Origin: a virus
Reading direction: 5' to 3' (one strand)
DNA: 64,000 nt
IMG/VR virus record: IMGVR_UViG_3300045988_167906
In this document: positions 13,530-63,321 of the stretch, piece after piece
Layout of the letters: each line of letters opens with the position of its first letter
Position numbering within the stretch: the stretch's first letter is position 1
The notes under the pieces: generated by a model
What the model saw: the letters and a program-made list of their open reading frames with translations, nothing else
What the model was told of the DNA's origin: nothing
The model's database searches: none
Program-made: the position numbers and the translations under genes

Positions 13530-13790
13530 ATGTCCTATTTTCCCCGAAGGGGTAAATGGGACATTTTGTCTGTCCCAATGAGACATTTTGATAAAAATGG
13601 GACATTGGGACGGGACATCTTCTTTACTTCGCTTATGTCCCATATGTCCCAATGTCCCATTTTACTTAAAATTTTAAATAAAACATCCAGTGCTTATGTC
13701 CTAATGTCCCATTTTATCTATGATATTCCATTTAAAATGGGACATTTTTCATGTCCCATTTTTTTGAGACATTTATTTGCTTGTGTCTCA
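13530..13790. repeat. iteron-like cluster: at least 10 copies of ATGGGACAT / ATGTCCCAT (plus degenerate variants) in both orientations within ~260 bp
   Basis: Directly counted in sequence. Non-coding, between minus-strand genes. Confidence 0.7.
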
Positions 13791-14288
13791 AAAATTAAAC
13801 TCATCTTTCTAATTAACGAATGTTCCTTTTAACACTTTATCACTAATTTTCTTTATGCCTTCAGCATCCCCTATACCTTCACGACGACTTAATGTTTTTC
13901 TATTAACTGTTATATTATATAACTCCTAACACATATTTATTACATCATTCTACGTAGGTTTTTTATTCTTCTTTTTAGTTGCTTCAACTACAGCATTTAA
14001 CATCTACCCATCAGTAATTTTTTCTTTTTCTCCGCCTTTAGCCCCTGAAGCAGCCTTTTGTTCACTAACCTCTTTAGATTTATCAATAGTAAGTTTCATA
14101 GACTATAACAACATCATAATAACTCCATAGTCTTTATCATTCTCATCAGGTTCAATACCATACAATCCATAGTTAGTTAATGCACTATATAATTTATATT
14201 TTAATTCTACATCTTCATTCTATTCAATAGTTTCTCTCATATTAGCCCAGAAGGTAAATTTATCTTTATTCGGCTTTTCAACTGCCAT
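13788..14288 (-). CDS. hypothetical protein (166 aa) with six in-frame TAG codons, ends TGA
   Basis: A 501-nt minus-strand frame free of TAA/TGA in AT-rich DNA. RBS AAGGAGG precedes the ATG. Translation MAVEKPNKDKFTFWANMRETIE(Q)NEDVELKYKLYSALTNYGLYGIEPDEN... Confidence 0.55.
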
Positions 14289-16812: not shown

Positions 16813-18222
16813 ATGTATAATGTATATGTTTGTAAAGTAAAAAACATTAGACCTGCGGAGAATGCTAATCGTCTGAATGCCTGTGAAGTATTTGGTATTA
16901 CTACCATTGTTGATAAATCCGTGAATGAAAATGACCTCTACGTCTATTTCCCCACGGATGGTCAAATTAGTGAAGAGTTTGGTAAGGCAAATGACCTCTT
17001 CCGCCGCAAGGATGAGAATGGTAATCCGGCGGGCGGTTTCATTGACCCTGTGAAGCGTAATATTGGTGCAATTCGTCTTCGCGGTAATAAGTCCGAAGGT
17101 CTTATCCTTCCACTTACTTGCCTTACACCTTTTGGTGACATCAGTAATCTGGCCGAAGGTGATATTGTATCTACCTTCAATGGTCATGTAATCGCCGAGA
17201 AGTATGTGCCGATGCATAAGCCCAGAGTTTCAGAGTCTACTGCACGCGGCGAACACAACCATAAGTCTGCAAAGAAATGCCGCATTAAGTATCCATTCTT
17301 CGCAGAACATATTGATACTCCCCAGCTTCGTTTTAATATGGATATGTTTAAGCCGGGCGACATTATCTGCTTGACCGAGAAGGTCCATGGTACCAGTTCT
17401 CGAAACGCATATCAGACTGCAATTGTTGGCGAAAACGGTTTCTTCCTTACCAAGCTTATTGCACATAGCAACTGGCTGCCGAAGAAGTGGCGTATGTCCG
17501 CACAGTCTCACCTTACCCCTAAAACTGAAATGCGTTATCTGATTGGTACTCGCCGCACTGTCCTTACTAACAATAGCACCGGCGGCTTTTATGACAATGA
17601 TGACTTCCGTAAGGCTTGGGGCGAGCGTTTCAAGGGTAAGCTTCTGCCTAATGAGGAATGCTTCGGTGAAATTGCAGGCTTCTACAAAGATAATTATGGC
17701 GGTGCAGTTCCTATCATGTCTCGTGGAGATAATACTAAAACAAAAGATAAGCAATTTATTAAGCAGTATGGTAAGACTACCACTTTCTCTTATGGATGTA
17801 CTGAAACTGGTTATTACACTTATGGTGATGGTACTCATGAAGAAAGACCGCTTAACCGCTATTTTGTTTACCGTATGACTTATACTACTCCTGAAGGTGT
17901 AGTAATTGAATATCCTTGGGACCTTGTTAAGCAGCGTGCAGAACAGATGGGTTTTGAAACTGTGCCTGAACTGGAACGTTTCATCTACACCACTGAAGAG
18001 GATTTCCTCGCACGGATTGCCAAGTATGAGGATATTCCTTCTACGATTGATTCTTCTCATGTAATTGAAGGTGTAGTTATTCGCAAGATGAATGGTACAC
18101 GTTTCGACGTTGCAAAAGATAAATCTTATAATTTTAAGGTACTTGAGAATCTAATTAAGGTTGATGCCGAAGTGCCGGACATGGAAGAAATTGAAGAAGA
18201 AATGACTCTGGAGGATAATTAA
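16813..18222 (+). CDS. ATP-dependent RNA ligase (Rnl2-like nucleotidyltransferase)
   Basis: Motif I LTEKVHGTS (KxHG) as in T4 Rnl2 EKIHGTN, and a large C-terminal domain. No in-frame TAG. Confidence 0.6.
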   Translation: MYNVYVCKVKNIRPAENANRLNACEVFGITTIVDKSVNENDLYVYFPTDGQISEEFGKANDLFRRKDENGNPAGGFIDPVKRNIGAIRLRGNKSEGLILPLTCLTPFGDISNLAEGDIVSTFNGHVIAEKYVPMHKPRVSESTARGEHNHKSAKKCRIKYPFFAEHIDTPQLRFNMDMFKPGDIICLTEKVHGTSSRNAYQTAIVGENGFFLTKLIAHSNWLPKKWRMSAQSHLTPKTEMRYLIGTRRTVLTNNSTGGFYDNDDFRKAWGERFKGKLLPNEECFGEIAGFYKDNYGGAVPIMSRGDNTKTKDKQFIKQYGKTTTFSYGCTETGYYTYGDGTHEERPLNRYFVYRMTYTTPEGVVIEYPWDLVKQRAEQMGFETVPELERFIYTTEEDFLARIAKYEDIPSTIDSSHVIEGVVIRKMNGTRFDVAKDKSYNFKVLENLIKVDAEVPDMEEIEEEMTLEDN

Positions 18223-23460: not shown

Positions 23461-25584
23461 ATGAGTTATTTATTTACCAGTGAAAGCGTTTTTGCCGGTC
23501 ATCCTGATAAGGTTTGTGATTAGGTAAGTGATGCTATTCTGGATTATGTCCTCCAGCTTGATCCTGATGCACGAGTAGCTTGTGAATGTACTATTAGCCC
23601 AGGCATCTTCCATATTATGGGAGAGATCACAGCTAAAACAGAACAATCTATTCCTTATCAGGAAATTGCAAGAGAGACTTTAAGATTTATTGGTTATGAC
23701 AATGATGAAGCAGGATTTAACTGCGACACTTGTTCATATATTATTAATGTAGTAAATCAATCCCCTGACATCGCTGCGGGTGTTGATAGGGATGGTGCTG
23801 GCGACCAAGGCATGATGTTTGGTTATGCAACCAATGAAACAGAAAATTATATGCCTATCGCTCAGCAACTTGCTAACAATATCTCGGTCATTATGTTTAG
23901 TAAGTATAAAAATGATTTGCTACCTTGGGCATTACCTGACGGCAAATGCCAGATAACTGTCCAATACGATGATGATGGCAACTTTGAAGGGGTAGATACA
24001 ATTGTCGTATCGGCCCAACACAAAGACAAGTATAGTATTAAGGAAATAACGCCCGATATTACGAACATTTGTAATATTGCCCTTCAAGGTTATGCCATTA
24101 AAAAAGATTGTAAATTTTATATTAACCCAACAGGTAAGTTTGTGAAGGGCGGTCCCCAGGCTGATACTGGATTAACAGGACGTAAAATCGTTGTAGATAC
24201 ATATGGTGGCTACGCTCCGCATGGTGGTGGATGCGTAAATGGAGATACAGAATTTTTAACCCTTAATGGGTGGAAAAAAATCTCTGAATTTTCTTCAGAT
24301 GATAAAGTAGCTCAATGGGATGATGGCAAGATTTCATTTGTTAATGGTGAATTTGTAAGGCTACCTAAAACTAAAATGTATCATATTGCTACTAATAAAT
24401 CATTGGATATGATATTATCTGATAATCATAATGTTCTCTATAAAACATCTAAAGGAAATTATCAGAAGAAAACTTGTCAAGAAATTTTAGACTATTATTA
24501 TAAAAATAATGGGTTTAGAAGTATTCAAATCCCTATTTATTTTACTTATGATTTTAAGGATAATCCTGGCCTTGATTTAACTGATGATGAAATTAGACTT
24601 CAAGTAGCATTTTGTGCAGATGGTACTATTCTAAAAGAGAATTCAGGATGGACTGGAAGAATTAGAGTTAAAAAGAAATATAAAAAAGAGGCATTAAGAA
24701 AACTATTCGCTTCAACAGGACTTGATTATAAGGAAACCCCAGATAATGATTGTAGTATTTTTTGGTATAAGCCTTCCTTCGTAAATAAAAAAATGAATGA
24801 ATGTTTATCTAAATGCAATTTGCATCAAGCTCAAATAATTGCTGATGAAGTAATTAAATGGGATGGAGATAGAGATTGTGTTTTTAGAACCACACATAAA
24901 GATGAAGCCGATTTTATTCAATTTATTTTTATGGCAGTTTATGGCACATCTTCTCATTTTTCTATTGATGATAGAATAGGTGAAACATTCAGTGAAAATT
25001 ATACTCGTAGAAGTATTTGTTATGAAGTAAGACAAGGTAAATATAAATATTCTACTCCATTCAGAACTTCAGGTTCTTCAATTGCCAATCTAACTATTGA
25101 AGATTATGAAGATAATGATCCTTGGATGTATTGTATTAATGTACCTTCTCATAATCTTGTATTAAGATATAATAATCGAGTTTTTATTACAGGCAATTGT
25201 TTTAGCGGCAAAGACCCCAGTAAGGTAGACCGTAGTGGTGCATATATGGCACGCTATGTAGCTAAAAATCTTGTAGCTTCTGGCGTTTGTGATAAATGTA
25301 TGATTCAAGTTGCTTATATCATTGGACAGACAGAACCTGCATCTATTGATATTAATTGTTTTGGCACAGAAAAGAAACCTATTGCTGAAATTCTTGATGC
25401 AGTTAATCAGACATTTGATTTTGCACCGCGTAGTATTATTCATAAATTTGATTTAAAGCATACTCGCTATTTACCCTATGCTTGTTTTGGTCATTTTGGT
25501 CGTATTGAATGCAATAGTCCTTGGGAACAACTTGATAAAGTAGACGAATTAAAAACAATTTTTGATTTTGAAAAGGAGAACTAA
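23461..25584 (+). CDS. metK: S-adenosylmethionine synthetase (MetK) interrupted by a 322-aa intein; TAG codon at the conserved Gln
   Basis: MSYLFTSESVFAGHPDKVCD(TAG)VSDAILD aligns with E. coli MetK [34 protein letters not shown] and (after the intein) CFSGKDPSKVDRSGAYMARYVAKN are the other MetK signature motifs. Confidence 0.85.
24232..25197 (+). mobile_element. intein inserted in the MetK HGGG|AFSGKD P-loop (starts Cys, ends Asn, +1 Cys)
   Basis: MetK homology is continuous across the deletion of 24232-25197. The insert begins CVNGDTEFLTLNGW and ends ...RVFITGN followed by CFSGKD. Confidence 0.7.
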
Positions 25585-27550: not shown

Positions 27551-27963
27551 GCAAGGTAATGTCTGGTCCAGGCAATCCTTTTGTATTTAATCAGATGGAT
27601 TTTTTAATGGGTCGTATTAAGAAAGAAGACACATTAAATAAATACCATATGCTTCTTAAATCAGGCAGAGTTATTCTTGAAGACTATTGGTGTTGGCATG
27701 GTCATGAATGGTATAAAGCATTAGTTAAATGTCTTAATGATTTTTATATTGTAATTATATCAGAAATAGATGTAATTAGTATAGAAAGAATAGAAAATCC
27801 AACAGTAGATTCTATCTATATGGAATATATATTGGCAAGCAGAATGAGAGGAGATGAAGTTGATGGCGACTCTATATATGATGTGCGGCTTGAGTGCAAA
27901 TGGAAAGACTACATTCGCGAAATCCTTCGCAAAGATGAATCACATCCGGTATGTAAACCCTGA
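27535..27963 (+). CDS. hypothetical protein
   Basis: Overlap. Confidence 0.4.
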   Translation: MEFDMSKVMSGPGNPFVFNQMDFLMGRIKKEDTLNKYHMLLKSGRVILEDYWCWHGHEWYKALVKCLNDFYIVIISEIDVISIERIENPTVDSIYMEYILASRMRGDEVDGDSIYDVRLECKWKDYIREILRKDESHPVCKP

Positions 27964-28399
27964 TGAATTGTATGCTGTCTTTAATGGTGATGAATGCAAC
28001 CGTAGTCATAAGTTCGAAGTTTGGCAGACATTGTATCAGATTGTACATTGTGCAGAACTGGACAATGCAGATATTATCATTGATACTAACTGTTTGACTC
28101 TTGGACAGAGAGAAGAAATCAGAAGCCGTTTCCCCCATTTCGATAACTATCAGCTTATGGTTATTATTGCTAGCGTAGAAAATTCAAAGGAATGGAACTC
28201 CCAGAGACATAGAGTAGTGCCGCAGCAGGAGCTTGAACGGCAGGCACGTATTGTAGACTGGCCTAATTTGACTGACCATTATAATGGTTGGAATAATATT
28301 AGATATTATTATAATGATGGCTCTCTGTTTACTAAATATCGTGAAATTTATGATGGTGAAGACCATGACTTGCGGCAGGAGAAGGAGGATAATAAGTAA
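27854..28399 (+). CDS. P-loop kinase (polynucleotide-kinase-like NTPase domain)
   Basis: Walker A GLSANGKTT, Walker-B-like IIIDTN. RBS GAGAGGAG. Confidence 0.5.
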   Translation: MKLMATLYMMCGLSANGKTTFAKSFAKMNHIRYVNPDELYAVFNGDECNRSHKFEVWQTLYQIVHCAELDNADIIIDTNCLTLGQREEIRSRFPHFDNYQLMVIIASVENSKEWNSQRHRVVPQQELERQARIVDWPNLTDHYNGWNNIRYYYNDGSLFTKYREIYDGEDHDLRQEKEDNK

Positions 28400-34783: not shown

Positions 34784-35000
34784 ACTGGTTGAAAAAACTG
34801 ATTGGAATAAATATCAGAAAGAAGATATTCTTGATTCGGTTAAAGAGCATCCTGAACTTCTGGATATGACACCTGTTCAGCTTCGTACCAGAGCCAGAGA
34901 TTTGGATTGGGATGCTGATGGATATATGAATAAGGTTAATAGCCTTGAAAATGAAGCGGCTTTGACCAGAGATTTAATTGAAATTATGTATGGAGAGTGA
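34761..35000 (+). CDS. hypothetical protein
   Basis: ATG 34761. Confidence 0.4.
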   Translation: MNIAELIKLVEKTDWNKYQKEDILDSVKEHPELLDMTPVQLRTRARDLDWDADGYMNKVNSLENEAALTRDLIEIMYGE

Positions 35001-35005
35001 TAATT

Positions 35006-35812
35006 ATGAATTACCATTCAGATAAATGGGTTATGGATAAGGTAGAAACTCATTTAGAAGCAGCTAATATTAGAAGCGAAAATTGGGTTAGTTTAATGGC
35101 TTATGGTAGCCAGAATTATGGTCTTGATACTCAAAATTCTGATGTAGATACCCGCCTTATTGTTCTTCCTTCATTTGAAGATATTGTATTGAATAAGAAG
35201 CCGGTATCTTATACCAAGATTCTTTCTAATGATGAACACATTGATTTTAAAGATATTCGTTTGTTCATTGATTGTTTGAAGAAACAGAATATGGCTTATC
35301 TTGAATGTATCTTCACGCCTTATAAAATGGCATCAAGTACGTATTGGAATGAGTGGCAGGCACTGCTTAATGAGCGTGAAGCTATTGCACGCTATAATCC
35401 TTACAAGGCAGTTAAGACAATGAAGGGTATTGCTATGGAAAAATACCATGCAATGGAACATAGATATCCTACTAAGGCCCATCTGATTGATACATATGGT
35501 TATGATAGCAAGCAGCTTATGCATCTGCTTCGTATTGAAAGATACCTTGGACGTTATATTGATGGTGTTAAATATGCAGATTGTCTTCAAGCCCCAATGG
35601 GTGATTATCTTCTTGATGTAAAAAATTATCATTATAATCTTGAAACTGCACGAATTGTAGCCAATACTGCTATTAGTAATATTACAAGAGTAGCTGATGA
35701 TTATTGTTCTAAGACCAAGGATGAAGGTAATGAAGAGCTTGAAGATTTTATGAATAAGATTGTTTATCTTATTATGAAAAAAAGAATTGTAAAGGAAATG
35801 TTAAATGTCTGA
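35006..35812 (+). CDS. nucleotidyltransferase (Pol-beta superfamily minimal NTase fold)
   Basis: YGSQNYGLDTQNSDVDTRL matches the G[GS]-x9-13-D-x-D motif. Confidence 0.5.
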   Translation: MNYHSDKWVMDKVETHLEAANIRSENWVSLMAYGSQNYGLDTQNSDVDTRLIVLPSFEDIVLNKKPVSYTKILSNDEHIDFKDIRLFIDCLKKQNMAYLECIFTPYKMASSTYWNEWQALLNEREAIARYNPYKAVKTMKGIAMEKYHAMEHRYPTKAHLIDTYGYDSKQLMHLLRIERYLGRYIDGVKYADCLQAPMGDYLLDVKNYHYNLETARIVANTAISNITRVADDYCSKTKDEGNEELEDFMNKIVYLIMKKRIVKEMLNV

Positions 35813-36009: not shown

Positions 36010-36789
36010 ATGTTCAAGGACTGGGTTGTCCGAGGCGATTGTCATGGCGATTTTACATGGCTTAACGCAAGAATGTTTAGAATTTTAAATCCAAAAGACT
36101 ACGCAATTATTATCCTTGGTGACGTAGGTTTCAATAGTGGCAATACATTCCGGGATGATATGAAGAAAAAGTATGCAAGCCAGTTTGGATATTCTATCTA
36201 TTGCGTGCGTGGTAACCATGAGGTACGTCCTGAGAATGTTGAAGGTATGGAACGCATTTGGGATAGTAATGTTCAAGCTAACGTATGGTATGAGCCGGCC
36301 TACCCTTTGATTAAATATTTTGATAATTATGGGGTTTATTATCTTAAAACAGAAGATAGAGAATATCGCACGTTGGTCATCTGCGGGGCTTACTCTGTTG
36401 ATAAATATTACCGTCTTAAAAATAATCTGCTCTGGTGGGAAGATGAGCAGTTGACTGATGCAGAGAAGTCAGAAGTAGAGAGACTTATTCGGCAGACTAA
36501 CAAGCATTTTGACCTTGTGCTCTCGCACACTTGCCCTTATTCTCTTAGGCCAGTTGATAAATTTCTTTCAGTAGTAGACCAATCTACTGTAGATACATCT
36601 ATGGAAGAGTGGCTTGAAACTATTAAGAATATGATTACATATGATGTATGGCTTAGTGGGCATTATCATGTTGACCGATTTATCAATAAGCATAATATTC
36701 TCTATTTTAATTGCATTGACTCATTAGAGGATATTTTTCTCTGGCATGATAAAATGGATGATACTGTAAATAACATTGACCGCATCTAA
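36010..36789 (+). CDS. calcineurin-like metallophosphoesterase (lambda-phosphatase family)
   Basis: GDCHGD, GDVGFN and RGNHE motifs. Confidence 0.65.
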   Translation: MFKDWVVRGDCHGDFTWLNARMFRILNPKDYAIIILGDVGFNSGNTFRDDMKKKYASQFGYSIYCVRGNHEVRPENVEGMERIWDSNVQANVWYEPAYPLIKYFDNYGVYYLKTEDREYRTLVICGAYSVDKYYRLKNNLLWWEDEQLTDAEKSEVERLIRQTNKHFDLVLSHTCPYSLRPVDKFLSVVDQSTVDTSMEEWLETIKNMITYDVWLSGHYHVDRFINKHNILYFNCIDSLEDIFLWHDKMDDTVNNIDRI

Positions 36790-44079: not shown

Positions 44080-44361
44080 ATGAAGAAGATTATAATTCCT
44101 CAAGAAGAAGTAAATTATCTTTAGAAATTAAATTATGAAATTGAAGCTAGAAAAAATTTATGTCAATTTTTAATTAGACAAAATATTAGAAATAAAGCTT
44201 TTGATGATTATCATAATGAGTATATAGAATTATTTGCTGAATATGAATTAGCTAAATTAGAATTAGAAAATAATTATATTAAACCAGTAATTGGAAATCA
44301 AACTTGTAATTGGAATTTAGATTTTTAGACAAACGAGGTAAATATTGATGTTATTTCCTAA
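44080..44361 (+). CDS. small protein (93 aa, two in-frame TAGs) preceding the radical-SAM gene
   Basis: RBS AAAGGAATAAAAATATG. Open to TAA only with TAG as sense. Confidence 0.4.
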
Positions 44362-45688
44362 GATAGTTAATATTCCTGAAGAATTTTCTGATTTTATAAG
44401 TCGTTTATATTCTAATGATTGCTTAAATTCTTAGGCTGTATTTACATTAACTTTTTAGGTTACAGATGATTGTTGTCTAAATTGTGTTTATTGTTATCAA
44501 GGACATAAAGGAAAACATAAATTATCCTTTAATACAGCTAAATAGATGATTGATTAGATACTAACAAGAGACAGTAAAGTTATTAATTATATTGACTCTT
44601 ATAAAATACCAGGAGTAGTAATAGAATTTATAGGTGGAGAGCCATTTTTAGAAATTGAATTAATTGATTAGATTACTGATTATTTTATTAATAAAATGAT
44701 TGAATTGCGGCATCCTTGGGCCACTAAATATAAAATTTCAATTAGTTCTAATGGTATTTTATATTTTGAACCAAAAGTACAAGAGTATATTAAAAAAAAT
44801 AATGAAAATTTAAGTTTATCAATTTCTATTGATGGAAATAAAAAATTACATGATGCTTGTAGAGTTTTCCCTGATGGTAGTGGTAGTTATGATAAAGCAT
44901 TGTCCGCCGCATTACATTATAGCCATAATTATAACAAATGGATCGGGAGTAAAATGACTATCTCTCCATTTAATATAGATTATTTATATGACGCTGTTTT
45001 AGAAATGATAAACAATGGTTATAGTCAAATCAATCTAAATTGTGTGTATGAAAAAGGTTGGGAACTTAACCATGCCACTACATTATATTATTAGTTAAAA
45101 AAAATTGCTGATTATTTATTAAATAATGATTTGTGGGATAAAGTTTATTTATCTATTTTTTATATTAATGATGGAAGTAAAAATTTATCTAATGATAATT
45201 GGTGCGGCGGGAATGGTCGTATGTTAGCCTTAAATTGGAAAGGTAAATATTATCCCTGTTTACGTTATATGGAAGATAGCATAAGTAATCAGCCAGAATA
45301 TTATATTGGAGATATTTATTAGGGAATAGGCCAAGATAATTTAACCATCAATAGATTAAAAGATTTATCTGAAATAACAGTTATTAGTCAATCTCCTCAA
45401 AAATGTTTAGATTGTGAAATTTCTGGAGGATGCTCTTGGTGTACAGCTTATAATTATCAAGAAACAGGTAATGTTAATAAAAGAGTTACTTATATTTGTG
45501 ATATGCATTATGCTATAGTTCTAGCTTCTTTATATTATTTAAATTCTATTTTAAAAAAAATAAACTCGAATAAACGATTTAAATTTAATGGAGATATGGA
45601 AAAAGCATTAAAAATTATCTCTTAGGATGAATATAATATAATAAAGGAGGCAATGACAAATGAAAATAGGCACGACAATAACTTCTGA
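44348..45688 (+). CDS. radical SAM / SPASM-domain peptide-modifying enzyme (anSME/sactisynthase-like) containing eight in-frame TAG codons
   Basis: DDCCLNCVYCYQ (CxxxCxxC), FIGGEPFL (GGE SAM motif), C-terminal CGGNGRMLALNWKGKYYPC...CLDCEISGGCSWC (SPASM). Listed ORFs 44696-45094 and 45131-45322 are two fragments of this single frame. Confidence 0.8.
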
Positions 45689-46310
45689 TAGATTCAATGA
45701 ATTAAAGAAAAAAATAAAGGCTGAATGTTTACGTCGTAAATATATAGGTAGTGTAAGTTCATATGGAGGGACTTCTTATGATTATACTACTTAGCCTAAT
45801 AATGGAAAAGTTATTTCAAAAGAACATATAACAAAACTGGTAGAACCTATGGCGGCAATAAATATTGAAAATCAGAATGAAAATATAAATGTTATTAAAG
45901 ATGATGATTTAAGTACATTAGAGGCAAAAATTACAGCTTATCAAGCTATGGGATTAACTGATTCGAATACTGGATGTTCAGCTTATTGCACTGGATTATG
46001 TTCTACTAGTTGTAGTGAAAGTTGTGGAGTACAATGTCAGGGAACTTGTTTAGGCAGTTGTAAGAATACTTGCCAAGGAGGCTGCCAAAACACTTGCAGA
46101 GGCGGATGTCGAAGCAGTTGTAGTGGCAGTTGTGATGGATGCAGTGGTTCTTGCTCAGGTGGATGCCAGACTGGGTGTAGCGGATGCAGCGGTAGCTGTA
46201 CAAGACATTGTGCTAACGATTGTACTGGATTGTGTGGAGGAAGTTGTTCTGGATTATGCACAAGTTGTACTGGCACATGTAGTGGAACTGGTAGGAATGA
46301 ACCATTATAA
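45660..46310 (+). CDS. RiPP-like precursor: ~105-aa leader plus ~110-aa core of 35 cysteines in (C-x3)/(C-x2) repeats; one in-frame TAG
   Basis: AGGAGG RBS then ATG 45660, in frame (through TAG 45792) with listed ORF 45849-46310. Core is CSAYCTGLCSTSCSESCGVQCQGTCLGSCKNTC..., ends TAA. Confidence 0.65.
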
Positions 46311-46428
46311 TTTAAAAACATTTATTGAAAATATATATAATTGTAAAATATATTATATGTATCTTATACAAAATAATATTTTATTTTGTATAAGTGATTA
46401 TAAAAATATAAACTTTCAAAAATATGAT

Positions 46429-46998
46429 ATGGATATTTAGATTTTATCTATTTATGAATATTTATTTCAAAAGTATATTTTACATAAAGATATATTAAAA
46501 CAATATAAAGGTATAGAATTATATAAAATTATGGAAATTCAAGATAAAATTTTTATTAATAGATATAAATTATTATTGTAGATTATTAATAATAATTATA
46601 ATTTTGATAATTAGTTAATATACACTGATTTTAATAATTTTAATTTTGAACAAAATATTAGTTATATAAATTATTGTTTAAAATTACTATTTAATAATTT
46701 TAAAAAAATAGATAAACAATTTTGGAAAATTTTAGATTAGATTTATTTTTTAATTAATGGTAAAACTAATTTATTTTTATTGTTGGGAAATTTTTATTTG
46801 AATAAAAGTAATTTATAGCAATTTACTGAAGAAATAAAAAAAATTCCTGGAATTAAAGAATAGCTCTCTTTTAGTTATACAGCTTTAAATTTAGCTATTG
46901 AAATTGATAAAGTTGCAGAAAATAAAAATTATCTTAATGAATTAATTGAAATTATTGATAATCATTCACAAGAAAAAATTTATAAATTTGATATTTAA
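46429..46998 (+). CDS. hypothetical protein (189 aa) with six in-frame TAGs in extremely AT-rich DNA
   Basis: A 570-nt frame free of TAA/TGA despite ~85 percent AT. Ends TAA. Confidence 0.45.
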
Positions 46999-47267: not shown

Positions 47268-47342
47268 TCCGTGGTCGAATAACTGGATAATTCATCAGAG
47301 TTAATTCTGAAAATAAGGATTCAAATTCCTTCCTTGGAGCCA
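47268..47342 (+). tRNA. tRNA-like gene with non-canonical 6-8 nt anticodon loop centred on TTAA; CCA encoded
   Basis: Acceptor tccgtgg/ccttgga (6 of 7), D stem gaat/attc, anticodon stem tcaga/tctga with loop gttaat, T arm aagga-ttcaaat-tcctt, discriminator G plus CCA. Late promoter directly upstream. Confidence 0.4.
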
Positions 47343-47433
47343 AGTATAAAAAGTCTTGGGTAAATTTCTTAATTTGAAAAAATTAAAAAAATATAATATA
47401 ATATATAAGTAATCAATAAGAAATTAAATAAAT

Positions 47434-47582
47434 GCTCTCGTAGCTCAATTGGTCAGAGCCGGCGACTTATCCAAAATTAGTTTAAATGGTAAAATAGTTT
47501 ATGCGCAAGAAAGATGTAAGTTCAAATCTAACATTTTGGGCCAAATCGCCAGATGTGGGTTCAAATCCCGACGGGAGCACCA
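47434..47582 (+). tRNA. tRNA interrupted by a ~78-nt insertion after the anticodon loop; the insertion itself has tRNA-like ends (ccaaaat...attttgg-g-cca, 47471-47543)
   Basis: Outer acceptor gctctcg/cgggagc plus A plus CCA, D arm gctc-aattggtca-gagc, anticodon stem ggcga/tcgcc split by the insert, T arm with ttcaaat. Confidence 0.4.
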
Positions 47583-47608: not shown

Positions 47609-47848
47609 ATGAAGTTGACAAATATTAAGCAGGTTGAAGATTTTATTTCAGCAGTTAATCGTGCTCATAGTAATGTATGGCTGGTTAGTCCGCAGGGCGA
47701 TAGATACAATATGAAATCTGCACTTTCACAGTATATTGCACTTGGTGCATTACTTGGTCAGCATGGCGATGAACTGGAACTTTTTTGTGATAGTAAGCAA
47801 GATGAAGGTTTATTTATTGAATTTTTTGTTCGTCATTCTGAAGTTTAA
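47609..47848 (+). CDS. hypothetical protein (79 aa)
   Basis: GAAAGGAATTAAAATAATG initiation motif. Confidence 0.45.
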   Translation: MKLTNIKQVEDFISAVNRAHSNVWLVSPQGDRYNMKSALSQYIALGALLGQHGDELELFCDSKQDEGLFIEFFVRHSEV

Positions 47849-49900: not shown

Positions 49901-49947
49901 AATGAATAATTTTTAATTTCTAATATATTATGAAAGGAGAGATTGTT

Positions 49948-50760
49948 ATGGCTCGTTCAGATATTTTAGAAAAAGAAAAAGAAATTCGTTAGTGGATAAA
50001 CGAAGAAAAATCTAAACGTTATATATGTGAATAGTTGCATTGTAAACCTGAAACTTTAAATTCTTATTTGGAGAAAATGAATATTGAATATAAGGGATAG
50101 CCTTATAAAAAAGGATAGAATAAAAATCCTCGATGTTATAAGCCAGCTATTTATTATATTGATAATCATAAGTATATTAGCTCTTCTGTTTTAAGACAAA
50201 AATTAGTAAAAGATGGATTGAAAAAAGACAAATGTGAAATTTGTGGTATTTCTATGTGGCAAGGAATTAAATTACCTTTAGAATTACATCATAAAAATGG
50301 AAACCATTTTGATAATGATTTAAATAATCTACAAATTTTATGTCCTAATTGTCATTCAATTCAAAATGGAAATAGTGGAGCAAATATCGGTAAATACGCG
50401 GGATTGCTGGAATAGGTAGACAACTCATCTTTAGACGGTGAGGCCGACAGGTGTGAGGGTCCGAGTCCCTCATCCCGCACCAATCATATTCAAAAGAAAA
50501 ATTATTGTTGTGATTGTGGAAAAGAGATATGTTTAAAAGCTATTAGATGTAAATCTTGTGCATCTAAATTTAGACAAAATTCTAAATCTCCAGATAGAGA
50601 AATTTTAAAAGAATTAATTAGAACTACACCATTTGTAACTATAGGGAAAATGTATGAAGTTTCTGATAATGCTGTCAGAAAATGGTGTAAAAATTATGAT
50701 TTACCTTATTAGTCATTAAAAATTAAAAAAATTTCTGATGAAGATTGGAAAAATATTTAA
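49948..50760 (+). CDS. HNH homing endonuclease with N- and C-terminal HTH-like domains; six in-frame TAGs
   Basis: CEICG...ELHHKNGNHFDNDLNNLQILCPNCH is an HNH motif. A single 813-nt frame runs from the AAAGGAG RBS through six TAGs to TAA. Listed ORF 50218-50415 is an internal fragment. Confidence 0.65.
50398..50482 (+). other. tRNA-like element (gcgggat...atcccgc-A-CCA, T arm gaggg-tccgagt-ccctc) embedded in frame inside the HNH ORF
   Basis: A 7-bp perfect acceptor pairing, T arm and CCA are all present. D and anticodon arms do not fold. Confidence 0.3.
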
Positions 50761-50800: not shown

Positions 50801-51293
50801 ACAGTGAAGTAGTAGCTATACTCATTATAATCAAGGCTCGGTGGTTGGTGGCTCCATCGTTATGTAAATAAGCCATATGTATATTACTTCTTGGTGTAAT
50901 GGAAGCATACTGCCTGAAAGAGGCGGAGGTATTGGTTCGATCCCGATAGAAGGAGTAATTAAAGCTAGGAAATGATAATCGCCTAAATAAATAAAGGATT
51001 ATTATTAAAGGTTATTTAGATTAAGGAAGCGGTTGAAGTTATTACTTACTTGATTATAAAATAACATGACCGCAAGACGAGTGTTTGAAGCTTGTCTATA
51101 AACAAATTCTTCATATGTTGTCTTTTTATACTTTCTCTTTGGTTGTTTCTTGACATATAAGTAAAAACGGAAAGGGAGTTAAAGGTTTAGCTATAAAACC
51201 GGTTTGTTTTTAATAAGATTTTTAAAATTAGGTGACAAAATCTTATTTGAGTGACGCTGCTCAGGAGGGTCCGGAACCTCTGAAATGCGATAT

Positions 51294-51370
51294 GCGGTTG
51301 TAGCTCAGTTGGTAGCAGCATTTGCCTTTTAAGCAAAGGGTCGGGAGTTCGAGCCTCCCCAACCGCACCA
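51294..51370 (+). tRNA. tRNA-Lys (TTT)
   Basis: Acceptor gcggttg/caaccgc, anticodon loop ctTTTaa, T arm gggag-ttcgagc-ctccc, CCA encoded. Confidence 0.8.
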
Positions 51371-52535: not shown

Positions 52536-53159
52536 ATGGCATACATTTATTAGATTATTAATGATATAAATTAGAAAATTTATGTTGGTAAAACTGAATT
52601 TTCTATTGAAAAACGTTTTAAAGAACATTGTAAAGATGCTTTTAGAGAGCGCAATGAAAAACGTCCATTATATTCAGCAATGCGAAAATATGGAGTAGAA
52701 CATTTTCATATTGAACTAATTGAAGAAACTGATGATGCTAATAATCGAGAAACTTATTGGATTGAAAAATTAGGTTCTTTTAAATGGGGATATAATGCTA
52801 CAATAGGCGGAGATGGTAAAAAGTATCTTGATTATGATTTAATTATTGCTTCTTATCAAGAAATTAAAAATATTGAAGAAACTGCTCGTAAATTAGGAAT
52901 TTCTTCTGATAGTGTAGAAAGAATTCTTAAAGAAAAAAAAGAAAAAATTTATTCTCAACAAGAAGTTAATTTAGTTAAATCAGGTAAAAAAGTTGCTCAA
53001 TGTGATAAAAAAACTGGAAAAATTTTAAATATATTTCCATCTATTGGAAGTGCAGGTAGAGCTATTAATAAACCTGATATTACTCATATAAGCGCTGTAT
53101 GTTTAGGTAAAAGACAAAGTGCTTATGGTTATAAATGGAAATTTATTGAAAATAATTAA
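52536..53159 (+). CDS. GIY-YIG homing endonuclease (I-TevI/Seg-like) with two in-frame TAGs
   Basis: MAYIY(TAG)IINDIN(TAG)KIYVGKTEFSIEKRFKEH matches the I-TevI N-terminus GIYQIKNTLNNKVYVGSA...KRWKRH, with the first TAG falling on the Q of GIYQI. C-terminal ...AYGYKWKF tail. Confidence 0.75.
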
Positions 53160-53557: not shown

Positions 53558-54190
53558 ATGCCTAGAAAATTAACTCAAGAAGAATTTGAACAAAGAGTTT
53601 ATAAATGTGTAGGGGATAAATATTTTGTTATAAGTGAATATAAAGGAAAATCTAAACCAATAGATTTAAAATGCAATATTCATGATATTGTTTTTCAAGC
53701 ATCCGCAGAATGTTTTATGCGAGGTCCAAAAGAAGTAAGATGCTCTTGCCCTAAATGTTCAGAAGAAAAGAAAAATGAAAAATTTTCTGCAAATAGAACT
53801 GAATTAGAATGTGCTTATTGTGGAAAGAAATTTATTCGTCCAAATTCTAAATTGAATAATTCAAAAAGTGGAATATATTTTTGCTGTAGAGAACATAAAG
53901 ATTTAGCTCAACGGATAGAGTTTGGTTTGAAAGAAATTCAACCAAATCATTATGGAAATAATATTGAAAGTATATATACTTATCGTAAAAATGCTTTTAA
54001 ATATTATCCTCATAAATGTGCTATCTGTGGTTGGGATGAAGATAAAGATATTTTAGAAGTTCATCATATTAATGAAAATAGAGAACACAATGAATTAGAG
54101 AATTTAATCATATTATGTCCTATTTGTCATAAAAAATTAACTTCTCATAAATATAAATTAATTAATAGGGAAAAAATTATTTCTTATTAA
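53558..54190 (+). CDS. HNH homing endonuclease
   Basis: C-terminal CAICGWDEDKDILEVHHINENREHNELENLIILCPICH. Confidence 0.7.
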   Translation: MPRKLTQEEFEQRVYKCVGDKYFVISEYKGKSKPIDLKCNIHDIVFQASAECFMRGPKEVRCSCPKCSEEKKNEKFSANRTELECAYCGKKFIRPNSKLNNSKSGIYFCCREHKDLAQRIEFGLKEIQPNHYGNNIESIYTYRKNAFKYYPHKCAICGWDEDKDILEVHHINENREHNELENLIILCPICHKKLTSHKYKLINREKIISY

Positions 54191-54508: not shown

Positions 54509-54582
54509 GGGGACATAGTTTATGGTAGGAAAACGTTGAATTTAATTCAAAGTCGAGGGTGCGATTCCCTCTGGCTCCACCA
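54509..54582 (+). tRNA. type-I tRNA with anticodon loop aT-TTA-At (anticodon UUA); nonsense-suppressor candidate
   Basis: Acceptor ggggaca/tggctcc (6 of 7), D arm gttt-atggtagga-aaac, anticodon stem tga(a)/(t)tca, T arm gaggg-tgcgatt-ccctc, discriminator A, CCA encoded. Confidence 0.5.
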
Positions 54583-54792: not shown

Positions 54793-54916
54793 TATGAAAA
54801 GCCCACACAGCAATTTTTAATAAGGTTAAATAAGAAATTCTGCAAAAATTTTTTAGAGTTGGTTCAAATCCAGCAAATGATTTTAGGGCTTTGTTAAAAT
54901 TGTTAAGGAGAAAATA

Positions 54917-55354: not shown

Positions 55355-55442
55355 GTAGGAGTGCCAGAGTGGTCGATTGGGTTAGTCTCCAAAACTAATT
55401 GTAGCTGCACATCCAGGGTTCGAATCCCTTGCTCCTATGCCA
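55355..55442 (+). tRNA. type-II tRNA (Ser/Leu-like architecture) with apparent anticodon CCA
   Basis: Acceptor pairing, 3-bp D stem, anticodon arm ttagt-ctCCAaa-actaa, ~15-nt variable arm, T arm with ttcgaat, CCA present. Confidence 0.5.
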
Positions 55443-57782: not shown

Positions 57783-59003
57783 ATGGCTGATAAAACTCTT
57801 AATACTCGTATTCAAGTATTAAATGATACTGCTGAAGCTCTTGAAAAAAAGAGTACTGCCGTCCCTCTTAAAGGCGAAATCGTTTATGACCAAACTAATC
57901 GCAAGATGAAGATTGGTGATGGCACTACTGCCTTGGGCAATTTAAAGTTTGTTGGCGGCGATGAAGCTCAAAATTTTGAAGCTACTCCAAAAAATGAGGA
58001 AACTGATGTTCAGGCTATTACTCGTGTTGTAGCTTCCGCAGAACTTCATAATGGCGATACTGCTATTGTAAAGCGTGCTATTACTGGCGATAAGATTTCT
58101 TATACTGCCTATGTATATGACGGCGAATGGAAGGCCATGGATGGCAACTATCGTGCTGATAATGTTTATTTTGATGATGACATTACTTATACCGTTGCTA
58201 TTGGTACTCTTTCTAAGCCTTCGGGTTCTGCTAAATTCGCGGCAAAAGGCAAGAGTGTTGAATATGTTCTGTCCAAGTTAATGGCACAGGAAGCTAACTC
58301 ATCCAAGACTAATCCTGCTGTTAGTTTCAGCGCACAGGGTGGTTTTGGCACATTTGAGATTGGTACTAAGAAGAATCTGACATATACAGCGGCACTATCT
58401 GCTGGTGGTTATACTTATGGCCCACCTACTGGTATTACGGCTCAGAGTTGGAATGTAAAATGCACTGGTATTGATGAAGCTAAGGCTACTGCAACAGGTA
58501 CTTTTGAAAATGTCATTGCTGAAGCGACACCTAAGAAGATTACTGCTACTGCTACTTATGGCGAAGGTAGTATTCCTGTGACCAATCTTGGTAATCCTTA
58601 TCCTGCTGGTAAGATTACTGCTGGTTCTGCTTCTAAAGATAGTGATAGTTTAGTTGGCGTTCGTCATATGTTCTATGGTGTTGTTAAGTCTGCTGATTTT
58701 GAACTTAACTCTGCTAATATTCGTAGCTTAAAGCATGAAACCGCTGCTAAAAAGACCATTGGCACATTTACTGCTGGTGAAGGCACGGTTAAGGTTATCG
58801 TTGCTTGCCCTGCGGGTCACAATGTGACTAAAGTTACTCTTCCTTCTGCTATGGGTGCTGATGCTACTGCTGACTTCGTAAAGCAGGCTGGCACTGTCGC
58901 TGTTGAAGGCGCTGAGGGCTACACTTCTGCTCCTTACACTGTTTGGGTTTTTGAGCCTGCTTCTATTCCAAGCACTCAGAGCTACAGTATTGTAATTGGT
59001 TAA
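57783..59003 (+). CDS. tail-fibre protein
   Basis: MADKTLNTRIQVLNDT...KIGDGTTALGNLKFVGG N-terminal anchor. Confidence 0.6.
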   Translation: MADKTLNTRIQVLNDTAEALEKKSTAVPLKGEIVYDQTNRKMKIGDGTTALGNLKFVGGDEAQNFEATPKNEETDVQAITRVVASAELHNGDTAIVKRAITGDKISYTAYVYDGEWKAMDGNYRADNVYFDDDITYTVAIGTLSKPSGSAKFAAKGKSVEYVLSKLMAQEANSSKTNPAVSFSAQGGFGTFEIGTKKNLTYTAALSAGGYTYGPPTGITAQSWNVKCTGIDEAKATATGTFENVIAEATPKKITATATYGEGSIPVTNLGNPYPAGKITAGSASKDSDSLVGVRHMFYGVVKSADFELNSANIRSLKHETAAKKTIGTFTAGEGTVKVIVACPAGHNVTKVTLPSAMGADATADFVKQAGTVAVEGAEGYTSAPYTVWVFEPASIPSTQSYSIVIG

Positions 59004-62178: not shown

Positions 62179-63321
62179 TTGGCAGATAAACAATTAAAAT
62201 CTTTGAAAATGCCAGGCTTAGAAGATCGATACCTTGTTAAACTAACTGTTAATGAATTATAGGATTTATTAACTCATATAGAATTCAATGGTGGGATAGC
62301 TTATCAAAATGATTTATTTAGTGGCAATTATAAAGATTTAAATAACGCTCCAAAGACTGAAGAAATTGTATTTAGAAATGAATTAAAAAGTGAACTAGCT
62401 AAATTAGAATATGTAACATTAGATGATTTAAAAAATCATACTAAAATGTTAGAAGCAAAATTTAATGGTAATGAAGAAAATGATTTAAGTGAAACCTGGA
62501 TTATTCATAAAGCCCCATCTTTCTATTTTAAAAGTAATATTGAATTTGTTTCTAATGGAATAACTTATTCTTCTATAGAATATAAAAAAAATACTTAGCC
62601 CAAGAAAGATGGTATTATTCTTGAAGATATGTTATATTATGATACCACTTGTGTTGGTCATAATCCTCAAGATAATTCTACTATTAATTACAAAGAAATA
62701 TCTTGGGAAAATTAGGCTTATAATACAATTACATTTACCAAAGAAAAGCCAACAGGTGATTTATTAAGATGGCTACAAGAAGATGGAACAATTAAAGGGC
62801 CTAATACATTTCAAGGACTATTTAATTATGTAAATAATTAGGATAATGAAACTTTAAAAAAGGCTAAAACGTATATAAATGATGTCATGAATAATTATCA
62901 TGCTCCAATAGCTGGTGAAAATACATTAGGTATAGTTATGGGCGGCGGAACTGGTATCGGTATTGATGAAAATGGTAGATTATATGCAACAGGAGAAATT
63001 ATAGCTGATGCAAATATCTTATGGTCTAAGATAGTAGAAAAACCTACTACTTTAGAAGCAATCAGCAAAGATGCAATGTGTCGAGCTATTATAAATAGTT
63101 TACCATCTAGCAGCTAGTCAGGTAATTATGCTGATTTATTAAATAAACCAGATTTATCTAAATATGCTTTAAAAACAGACATATCTGAATACACATTACC
63201 AACTGCCTCAACTTCTACTCTTGGCGGCGTAAAAATAGATAATAGTACAATTGGTATTAGTGATGGATTTATTTATGTAAAAAATACTAATTCAGCCGTT
63301 TGGACTAAATGGACAGGATAA
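62179..63321 (+). CDS. tail-fibre-like protein with five in-frame TAGs (TTG start; alternative ATG at 62209)
   Basis: AAAGGAGG RBS. An 1143-nt frame open only with TAG as sense. C-terminus GGVKIDNSTIGISDGFIYVKN. Confidence 0.5.

Follow-up and report, generated by a model that had tools for sequence, protein, structure and literature searches.

We examined a 64,000-nt stretch of a viral genome (IMG/VR record IMGVR_UViG_3300045988_167906; hereafter the window), in which a gene predicted to encode tRNA-Ile(UAU) is interrupted in its anticodon loop by a 73-nt insert that is itself shaped like a tRNA. The insert covers one tRNA-shaped unit, from its nucleotide +1 through its CCA, and its removal restores an ordinary tRNA. 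On balance, we consider this a functional tRNA-Ile(UAU) gene with a tRNA-mimic intron, which RNase P together with RNase Z or RNase E would excise, after which a phage RNA ligase would rejoin the halves. Judged by its sequence, the locus is a member of a sizeable family of tRNA genes in gut phages that are interrupted by tRNA mimics. The source phage is AT-rich and has a genome of ~190 kb.

To our knowledge, bacteria and phages are thought to splice tRNAs solely via self-splicing group I introns, and protein-catalysed tRNA splicing is regarded as an archaeal and eukaryotic trait. In Lak megaphages, 'enigmatic' tRNA introns were reported, one of which "may encode a tRNA" (Devoto et al. 2019, PMC6784885). 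Like the introns described here, those of Lak phages are short, lie in anticodon loops of TAG-recoded gut phages, and are conserved where present and absent from sister genomes (PMC6784885). The traits that define them, namely a short, tRNA-like insert within the anticodon loop and its presence in some related phages but not in others, were all found in our lineage. The two groups differ in that Lak phages are ~540 kb and associated with Prevotella, whereas the present lineage is ~190 kb and probably associated with Clostridia, and in the tRNAs that are interrupted (PMC6784885). Lak genomes likewise encode an RNA ligase, there of the T4 type (PMC6784885). The Lak tRNA-Tyr intron (Table S6), however, lacks a CCA and has ~28 nt ahead of its tRNA-like part, whereas a single tRNA-shaped unit from +1 to CCA is found here (PMC6784885). 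The Lak paper, which proposed neither a mechanism nor a boundary rule (PMC6784885), was the only relevant report in the literature that we searched for a described mechanism; Lak-type tRNA introns are absent from a jumbo-phage review of 2026.

A predicted tRNA-Ile(UAU) gene is interrupted between loop positions 36 and 37

All four arms of the outer tRNA are intact, and 73 extra bases lie within its anticodon loop (Table 1). A first-pass annotation of this DNA had recognised the outer acceptor, D arm, anticodon-stem halves and T arm, and each of them was confirmed. Its insert length of 78 nt had to be revised to 73 nt, and the insert does not follow an entire loop cttatcc, as had been proposed, but sits within the 7-nt loop, between T36 (47470) and A37 (47544). 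The outer gene scored 42.7 bits against the Rfam tRNA model (RF00005, gathering score 29), the alignment placing a local insertion of 76 nt within its anticodon loop, and ARAGORN detected it solely when introns were permitted.

For assignment of the register, every split that leaves a 7-nt anticodon loop was examined. Only one of them, CTTAT/AA (the slash marks the insertion point), gave a 7/7 inner acceptor with NCCA together with a 7-nt loop carrying U33 and A37. Excision of the insert from nucleotide +1 through CCA restores the loop CTTATAA, that of a tRNA-Ile(UAU), and ARAGORN called the spliced sequence (47471-47543 removed) an ordinary 76-nt tRNA-Ile(tat). The intronless Ile(tat) genes of two relatives (L010 and L005; related loci are numbered with the prefix L) have a loop identical to that of the spliced product, and the D arm of L010 is near-identical. 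Furthermore, the exons carry A73, C4-G69, U12-A23, C29-G41, A37 and A38, which we take to be the identity elements of E. coli tRNA-Ile (Nureki 1994). From these features we assign the gene to tRNA-Ile(UAU), interrupted between loop positions 36 and 37.

A different register was given by the ARAGORN -i output, namely a tRNA-Trp(CCA) with a 73-nt intron (TATCCAAAAT...TTGGG) after nt 33. In this register TATCC...TTGGG is removed and the CCA of the insert is taken as the anticodon. We rejected it on the inner structure and the empty-site alleles, and consider it very improbable. It is arbitrary with respect to the inner structure, since its cuts fall 3 nt ahead of the inner acceptor stem and within NCCA, and the exact empty-site alleles described below match the +1-to-CCA rule and not the Trp(CCA) register. 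The exons bear discriminator A73 and the Ile identity pairs, and another Trp(cca) call is already present in the window (55355-55442). In sister cases, too, the ARAGORN registers clash with the tRNA body or with intronless alleles: 'Pro' was called on a tRNA with a Leu-type long variable arm, and 'Met' on a gene that shares its slot and loop with an intronless Lys(ttt).

Upstream of the gene lies a promoter-like site (Table 1), and the spacer around it is entirely invariant among relatives. In this AT-rich stretch three promoter-like matches were found, with 3.6 expected by chance.

The insert is a tRNA mimic

The 7-bp acceptor, discriminator, CCA and T-arm-like segment that had been reported for the insert were all recovered (Table 1). 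They form a minihelix of the type used as substrate by RNase P and RNase Z, consisting of 7 + 5 bp (T stem 4/5) plus G-CCA. In addition, the insert contains a D arm and a degenerate anticodon region. This D arm, the exact register (+1 through CCA, in the loop), the Ile-UAU identity and the lack of a working anticodon arm had no place in the first-pass annotation. Covariance-model scoring, which had been suggested there as a check, gave 42.7 bits for the outer gene, as stated above, and 35.5 bits for the insert alone (Rfam tRNA, gathering score 29), the latter reached only by skipping 17 model positions of the anticodon arm. ARAGORN did not call the insert a tRNA, and among 20 inner elements it made no call for 19 and returned an undetermined type ('tRNA-???') for the other. 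The insert does not form a complete cloverleaf, and it is a tRNA-like mimic rather than a second decoding tRNA.

Rfam searches with the gene and with the insert returned no family except tRNA, even at E <= 10. Thermodynamic folding gave a z-score of -1.5 when the whole gene was used and of 0.0 for the insert, whose minimum free energy structure differs from the cloverleaf. Folding energies are thus uninformative, and the structural case rests on covariation.

One boundary rule applies to nested tRNA genes of related phages

A conserved 79-aa open reading frame (ORF) directly downstream of the gene (47609-47848) served as the anchor with which 14 IMG/VR loci and 80 metagenome loci were fetched. 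The relatives are TAG-recoded phage contigs of ~150-240 kb from human-gut and rumen metagenomes. One of them is binned in a Clostridium metagenome-assembled genome (MAG), and the cellular homologues of the 79-aa neighbour gene are all from Clostridia, so that Clostridia are the likely hosts. The tRNA set looks bacterial, with class II tRNA-Tyr of 83-86 nt that have long variable arms.

Across the fetched loci, ARAGORN with introns permitted predicted 973 tRNAs, 66 of them interrupted, and the rule that the intron runs from +1 to CCA gave a unique solution for many of the interrupted genes. We also used a rule-based scanner that is independent of the ARAGORN intron mode and filters for a 7-nt loop, U33 and a purine at 37. 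It found 34 nested genes in 1.18 Mb and none in the reversed sequence; in 0.89 Mb of genome-derived loci it reported the phage contig L120 alone. The confirmed nested genes comprise 22 distinct sequences with 10 unrelated insert families of 47-77 nt. The insertion follows nt 34, 35 or 36 of the anticodon loop, in six tRNA species: Ile-UAU (CTTAT/AA and CTT/ATAA), Lys-UUU (CTTT/TAA and CTT/TTAA), Glu-UUC (CTTTC/AA), Gln-UUG (CTTT/GAC), Leu-UAA (CTT/AAAA) and a CUA suppressor (CTCT/AAA).

All 20 spliced products that were built are ordinary tRNAs with the predicted anticodon according to ARAGORN, and the Leu hosts retain the long variable arm of tRNA-Leu, though ARAGORN's own register read 'Pro'. 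The one clear CCA-less insert was found in L011, in a tRNA-Asn(GUU) without an encoded CCA; its boundary falls directly after the discriminator, which is where RNase Z cuts and which supports the model proposed below. Comparison of these genes makes the boundary rule well supported.

The nested gene recurs in many independent assemblies (IMG/VR, ENA, JGI and one MAG). This recurrence and the compensatory changes described below indicate that it is neither a chance pattern nor an assembly artefact. In 33 of 34 locus/anticodon cases, the window included, the interrupted gene is the sole copy of its anticodon in the fetched stretch, which argues against dead genes. A search for the exact junction pattern gave no match in IMG/VR, with the window's own sequence outside the collection searched. 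An intron 17-mer retrieved four already known relatives and chance matches inside coding sequence, and nothing else. BLAST of the region against GenBank phages yielded no homologue of the locus, and no related loci were obtained with the neighbouring 208-aa ORF as the query.

Empty sites and compensatory changes delimit the intron

Several nested genes have intronless counterparts in sister phages. After splicing in silico, the Gln gene of L035 and the Leu gene of L089 are identical to the intronless genes of sister phages over 75/75 and 85/85 positions, respectively, the Ile gene of L003 is 96% identical to the intronless Ile of L027, and for the Lys gene of L028 the identity to an intronless Lys is 93.5%. 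The indel has no room to slide between its flanking bases, and the DNA boundaries match the mature tRNA-like ends (+1 and CCA). The window's own Lys(ttt) gene (51294-51370) is intronless, and the same slot in L001, L025 and L028 holds a 58-nt insert; its last 28 nt and the 3' end of the adjacent tRNA-Val are the same sequence.

Covariation was assessed in an alignment of nine Ile-type nested-gene variants. In this alignment 95% of pair cells were paired, none of 500 shuffles reached the observed score, and slid controls attained at most 52%. The inner acceptor was 100% paired in the nine variants, with three of the seven pairs changed on both sides (CCAAAAT/ATTTTGG, CCAAGAT/ATCTTGG and CTAAGAC/GTCTTAG), and compensatory changes were present in all four outer helices too. 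In L003 and others, a quite different tRNA body (exons) surrounds the same intron. The only features common to the 10 insert families are a 7-bp acceptor stacked on the 5-bp stem of a T arm whose loop has 7 nt, followed by N-CCA. Over this 12-bp minihelix, 97.5% of positions are paired in the 10 families versus 58% after shuffling, with 40 pair types over the 12 pairs. A U occupies nucleotide -1 in all but one of the 10 families, and the middle of the inserts consists of reduced D-like hairpins and short spacers. We take the 12-bp minihelix with NCCA to be the smallest substrate that RNase P, RNase Z and the CCA-adding enzyme accept, and U(-1) is presumably the preference of bacterial RNase P.

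With conserved exons that would rejoin to a canonical tRNA and compensatory pairing that is kept, the view that the insert behaves as an intron is supported. Its presence or absence varies between near-identical phages, and inserts of the same design occur in different tRNAs and at different loop positions. The introns are likely mobile or selfish, because their distribution is patchy, related modules occur in different tRNAs and the boundaries coincide exactly with mature ends. The initial description had given two alternatives, a mobile, tRNA-like nested insertion and an intron of an unusual kind, and both halves find support here, the one in the mobile-like distribution and the other in the intron-like exons.

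The tRNA bodies in the same slot differ strongly among close relatives, and the flanking spacers and the intron are nearly identical (window 51294-51370 versus L001:7217-7349 and L003:7886-7960; window 47434-47582 versus L003:5827-5974), as if tRNA cassettes had been swapped between relatives. At L004:9003-9196 (also in L026, ~3996), the Lys slot retains a 3' exon, together with the remnant of a tRNA-like insert that ends in CCA, and no 5' exon is recognisable. It appears to be a decayed or split gene, which ARAGORN calls a 95-nt 'Leu(caa)'. A BLAST match of the Ile-type insert to this call in L004 and L026 was rejected as a source tRNA, as it lies in the decayed Lys slot.

A splicing pathway with tRNA end-processing enzymes and a phage ligase is proposed

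The comparison of loci establishes exactly where the intron begins and ends, that it has a conserved tRNA-like build, that the predicted spliced product is canonical and that a ligase gene is present, and it strongly suggests how the intron would be removed. In the proposed pathway, the precursor would adopt a cloverleaf fold, from whose anticodon loop another, smaller tRNA-like domain would protrude. RNase P would take the inner domain for a pre-tRNA and cut at its +1 (47470/47471), so that the 5' exon would keep a 3'-OH, and a tRNA 3'-end endonuclease would cut directly after the inner CCA (47543/47544), so that the 3' exon would keep a 5'-phosphate. The 3' cut could be made by RNase E, or by RNase Z in the manner known from Thermotoga and archaea. 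The exon halves would be held together by the acceptor and anticodon stems, and the nick in the loop would be sealed by the phage ATP-dependent DraRnl-type RNA ligase, yielding the loop CUUAUAA. Products of RNase P and RNase Z carry 3'-OH and 5'-P, which are the substrate ends of DraRnl-type ligases and fit the ligase gene at 16813-18222. From these considerations we infer which enzymes may cut and join. Cleavage exactly after an encoded CCA was described for archaeal RNase Z, which needs the acceptor stem only (PMC7479834); according to citations in that paper, T. maritima RNase Z also cuts after CCA (Minagawa 2004), and RNase E does so in some cases (Mohanty 2016).

The product of the ligase ORF matched PHROG 968 'RNA ligase' (1.9e-53) and Pfam PF09414 and PF21189, and NCBIfam TIGR02306 RNA_lig_DRB0094 at 5e-12, below the equivalog cut-off. 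The ligase motifs KxHG, GE, EG and KxK (K190/H192/G193, G285-E286, E419-G420 and K435/K437) are invariant in 12 homologues. The ORF had no sequence match in PDB, and its AlphaFold model (pLDDT 51) was too poor for use. Three further proteins of the window may be tied to the intron, namely an AAA_33 protein, possibly an RNA 5'-end healing enzyme, a calcineurin-like metallophosphoesterase, possibly a 3'-end healing enzyme, and RlaP (Table 1). Other PHROG and Pfam matches in the window include DNA methylases, a tail-fibre/Mtd domain and homing endonucleases.

Table 1 Coordinates of the interrupted gene, candidate enzymes and other features; positions without a locus number refer to the window
Feature	Position	Strand	Description
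5' exon of predicted tRNA-Ile(UAU)	47434..47470	+	acceptor 5' strand, D arm, anticodon-stem 5' strand GGCGA, loop nt 32-36 CTTAT
tRNA-mimic intron	47471..47543	+	73 nt, between 5' and 3' exons
3' exon	47544..47582	+	loop nt 37-38 AA, TCGCC, variable loop, T arm, acceptor 3' strand, A73, CCA
Outer acceptor	47434-47440 with 47572-47578		GCTCTCG with CGGGAGC, then A and CCA (47580-47582)
Outer D arm	47443-47459		
Outer anticodon-stem halves	47461-47465, 47546-47550		GGCGA, TCGCC
Outer anticodon	47468-47470		TAT
Outer T arm	47555-47571		
Insert acceptor	47471-47477 with 47533-47539		CCAAAAT with ATTTTGG, 7/7 pairs
Insert D arm	47480-47495		GTTT-AAATGGTA-AAAT, loop contains GG
Insert degenerate anticodon region	47496-47515		sole stem 3 bp, 47498-47500 with 47508-47510
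Insert T arm	47516-47532		GTAAG-TTCAAAT-CTAAC, T stem 4/5 bp
Insert discriminator and CCA	47540, 47541-47543		G, CCA
Predicted spliced junction			RNA GGCGACUUAU/AAUCGCC; k-mer GCCGGCGACTTATAATCGCCAGATG
Unspliced junction k-mers			5' GACTTATCCAAAAT; 3' TTGGGCCAAATCGCC
Promoter-like site	47374..47402	+	TTGAAA-17-TATAAT, 32 nt upstream of tRNA 5' end; 11/12 consensus matches
ATP-dependent RNA ligase, DraRnl (Rnl5)-like	16813..18222	+	N-terminal OB fold and nucleotidyltransferase domain; candidate exon joiner
AAA_33 P-loop kinase-like protein	27854..28399	+	Pfam PF13671 1.2e-12; very weak match to bacterial Pnkp
RlaP, RNA-repair-pathway nucleotidyltransferase family	34997..35812	+	Pfam PF10127 2.1e-7
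Calcineurin-like metallophosphoesterase	36010..36789	+	Pfam PF00149 2.6e-13
ORFs with 5-11 in-frame TAG codons	44348-45688, 46135-46998, 49930-50760, 62209-63321		
ORFs with 5-11 in-frame TAG codons	12847-13437, 13788-14288	-	
Second insert class in relatives	L009:1362-1487, 1494-1613; L058:1471-1592; L059:5910-6038; L041:1402-1520; L046:9851-9972		equivalents in L089, L093, L099

Several points weigh against this pathway. DraRnl-type ligases are known to seal nicks in duplex RNA and are not known to do so in single-stranded loops. Among the nested-tRNA contigs of IMG/VR, the ligase family was found in _152007 alone, besides a 30-kb contig that shares its sample with another of them, and it was not found in the 201-kb contig _151351, by a pattern search that may miss diverged or TAG-interrupted copies. 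One inner element ends in TCA instead of CCA, and several inner T loops (GGCAGCA, GGCAGGA and GGCGGTA) are non-canonical. The ~28 extra nt of the Lak tRNA-Tyr intron would be unexplained by a simple two-cut model. Finally, RNase Z of the B. subtilis type is strongly inhibited by CCA with Mg2+ (PMC7479834), which, with Clostridia as the likely hosts, makes the 3' cutter uncertain.

Other ways of removal, or no removal, explain the locus less well

The same intron with the same boundaries could be removed by other means, if an endonuclease of phage or host origin, specific for the minihelix or the junction, left a 2',3'-cyclic phosphate and a 5'-OH that were then healed (by the products of 27854-28399 and 36010-36789) and ligated, or were joined by an RtcB-type ligase from outside the window. 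We regard such a route as unlikely, even though the window encodes a full gene set of that style (AAA_33, metallophosphoesterase, RlaP and ligase), no enzyme was identified for the cut after CCA, and the clostridial type of RNase Z may be inhibited by CCA. The features kept in the 10 intron families are only those read by tRNA end-processing enzymes (the 12-bp minihelix, NCCA and U(-1)), the boundaries equal mature tRNA ends to the nucleotide and shift to the discriminator in the CCA-less case, and no dedicated endonuclease was found beside the tRNA array, where the recognised nucleases were only of the homing types GIY-YIG and HNH. The insert might instead be a mobile tRNA-like element or a useful small tRNA-like RNA (decoy or primer) set free by RNase P and 3' processing, with the outer tRNA as its carrier or as a pseudogene that is never rejoined. 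The differences in presence among near-identical phages, the related inner modules in different host tRNAs and the 28 nt of tRNA-Val copied in the Lys-type insert would suit such an element, and the Lys slot of L004, where an intron remnant and a 3' exon stand without a recognisable 5' exon, shows that decay is possible. It is nevertheless rather improbable in view of the intact exons with compensatory changes in four outer helices, the 20 of 20 predicted spliced products that are canonical, the long variable arm kept by the Leu hosts and the lack of an intact second copy of the anticodon nearby in 33 of 34 cases. A 7-nt loop, U33 and purine 37 are likewise kept by all 22 inserts, although these were scanner filters and are not independent for the scanner-found cases.

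A self-splicing or self-cleaving ribozyme (mini group I-like or small nucleolytic) or an archaeal-type bulge-helix-bulge (BHB) intron is highly unlikely. Group I introns are known in the anticodon loops of bacterial tRNAs, and the relative L095 has a 224-nt intron in its tRNA-Leu(taa). By contrast, the insert is just 73 nt long (47-77 nt in relatives) and matches nothing in Rfam except tRNA at E <= 10, the intron families have no common sequence core but only tRNA-like helices, and the junction positions vary (34/35, 35/36 and 36/37). The junction consists of a 7-bp acceptor helix flanked by 5 nt (CTTAT) and 6 nt (GCCA+AA), not of two 3-nt bulges around a 4-bp helix as in BHB, and the host range looks bacterial (long-arm tRNA-Tyr and binning to Clostridia).

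Excision by RNase P and RNase Z or E with ligation by the phage enzyme can also be set beside known systems. Mitochondrial tRNA punctuation, the t-elements of plant mitochondria and the mascRNA of MALAT1 rely on an embedded tRNA-like fold that recruits RNase P and RNase Z, and thereby defines the ends of the flanks. In those cases the flanks are separate RNAs that are never rejoined, whereas here they are halves of one tRNA that would need ligation. Archaeal and eukaryotic tRNA introns (EndA/Sen, with RtcB or Trl1) are likewise short, lie in the anticodon loop and depend on proteins for removal and ligation. The present introns differ from them in having no BHB motif, a variable position rather than 37/38, a bacterial host and expected 3'-OH/5'-P ends rather than cyclic phosphate/5'-OH, and nothing EndA-like was seen among the window proteins scanned. 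Group I introns, such as that of cyanobacterial tRNA-Leu(UAA), also occur sporadically in the anticodon loop of bacterial-type tRNAs, but they are at least 200 nt long, self-splicing and equipped with a conserved P3-P8 catalytic core, whereas the insert here has 73 nt and no core; it gave no match to the group I model RF00028 even at E <= 10. T4 Pnkp and Rnl1 reseal tRNA anticodon loops broken by PrrC, and DraRnl-type ligases seal nicks. Phage repair ligases thus likewise act on breaks in anticodon loops, and Lys-UUU, Glu, Gln and Asn overlap the classic targets of anticodon nucleases. However, repair answers damage by host toxins, whereas the break considered here would be programmed by gene structure and made by housekeeping enzymes.

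Interrupted tRNAs read codons enriched in recoded genes

In-frame TAG codons are frequent in part of the window (Table 1). The radical-SAM ORF 44348-45688 has eight of them, GIY-YIG genes contain TAG too, and in L003 and L005 TAG replaces a Gln codon of the 79-aa ORF. Compared with TAG-free ORFs, those that contain TAG rely much more on ATA, AAA, GAA and TTA; the share of ATA among Ile codons is 26% versus 6% (p = 2e-13), and that of AAA among Lys codons 81% versus 53%. These differences suggest two codon-usage classes of genes in one phage. The interrupted tRNAs (UAU, UUU, UUC, UUG, UAA and CUA) read codons enriched in the TAG class (ATA, AAA, GAA, CAA, TTA and TAG), and the ligase ORF is TAG-free. 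As these tRNAs read A-ending or TAG codons and the ligase belongs to the non-recoded class, maturation of the former would depend on the phage ligase, and a ligase-dependent gate on the translation of the recoded gene class is plausible. A broader proposal, in which an undescribed splicing pathway is combined with mobile introns, perhaps spread by ligation of mature tRNA-like RNAs ending in CCA into nicked anticodon loops and copy-back to DNA, and with translation of recoded genes tied to an early phage enzyme, is tentative and in our view doubtful as a whole.

The rule that the intron is one tRNA-shaped unit from +1 to CCA turns the phage introns called 'enigmatic' in 2019 into a testable hypothesis. 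If the proposed pathway is true, RNase P and RNase Z/E would serve as splicing endonucleases and the phage repair ligase as a splicing ligase, giving phage RNA ligases a routine role besides the repair of toxin damage. It would also mean an added layer of control over codon-biased, stop-codon-recoded late genes, a new kind of small mobile element and a design principle for ligase-gated tRNAs. Standard tRNA finders miss such genes or misassign their anticodon (Trp, Met, Pro or SeC), which distorts the annotation of tRNAs and genetic codes in gut phages.

Further elements of the window and its relatives

A second class of inserts, of 33-57 nt, also lies in anticodon loops but is not tRNA-like (Table 1). 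It occurs in tRNAs called Gly, Thr, Pro, 'Stop tta', Asn and Lys and carries motifs such as YTTGAAAAAG...GCAAG or ACAGCAAGTTT; the +1-to-CCA rule does not fit it. The 224-nt intron of the tRNA-Leu(taa) of L095 (6772-7080) sits at the classic bacterial group I site and matched no Rfam family at the gathering score. Rfam searches of the relatives with the second insert class and of the one with the 224-nt intron returned tRNA matches only.

A conserved tRNA-like element that stands by itself (47268-47343) was observed upstream of the nested gene, at a distance of about 90 nt. It has an acceptor with one mismatch, a D arm (GAAT/ATTC), a stem of 5 bp closing a 6-nt loop (GTTAAT), a T arm (AAGGA-TTCAAAT-TCCTT) and G-CCA (CAA in some relatives), and neither ARAGORN nor Rfam detected it. 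A tRNA at 54509-54582 was missed by ARAGORN and scored 48.5 bits with Rfam; its ...GTTGA-ATTTAAT-TCAAA... could be read as anticodon UUA (ochre) or as a 5-nt loop, and relatives have 'tRNA-Stop(tta)' calls with 39-nt inserts. Three tRNA calls are odd and have low scores, namely an 88-nt 'Trp(cca)' right after a tRNA-Ser (55355-55442), a 'Phe(aaa)' that lacks CCA (50884-50956) and a 'Cys(gca)' of very high AT content (54809-54883). The tRNAs are interspersed with genes for homing endonucleases (GIY-YIG at 52536-53159 and HNH at 53558-54190), and ORF 49930-50760 has an HNH-like motif that Pfam failed to match.

Elsewhere in the window, the ORF 23617-25584 encodes an S-adenosylmethionine synthetase of 655 aa with ~330 residues inserted between its central and C-terminal domains. 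The insertion matched PhoH-like and terminase-like P-loop profiles and could be an inserted domain or an intein-like element. The product of ORF 57783-59003 begins with a domain of the Mtd (major tropism determinant) type. Such a domain hints that the phage carries a diversity-generating retroelement, and with it a reverse transcriptase.

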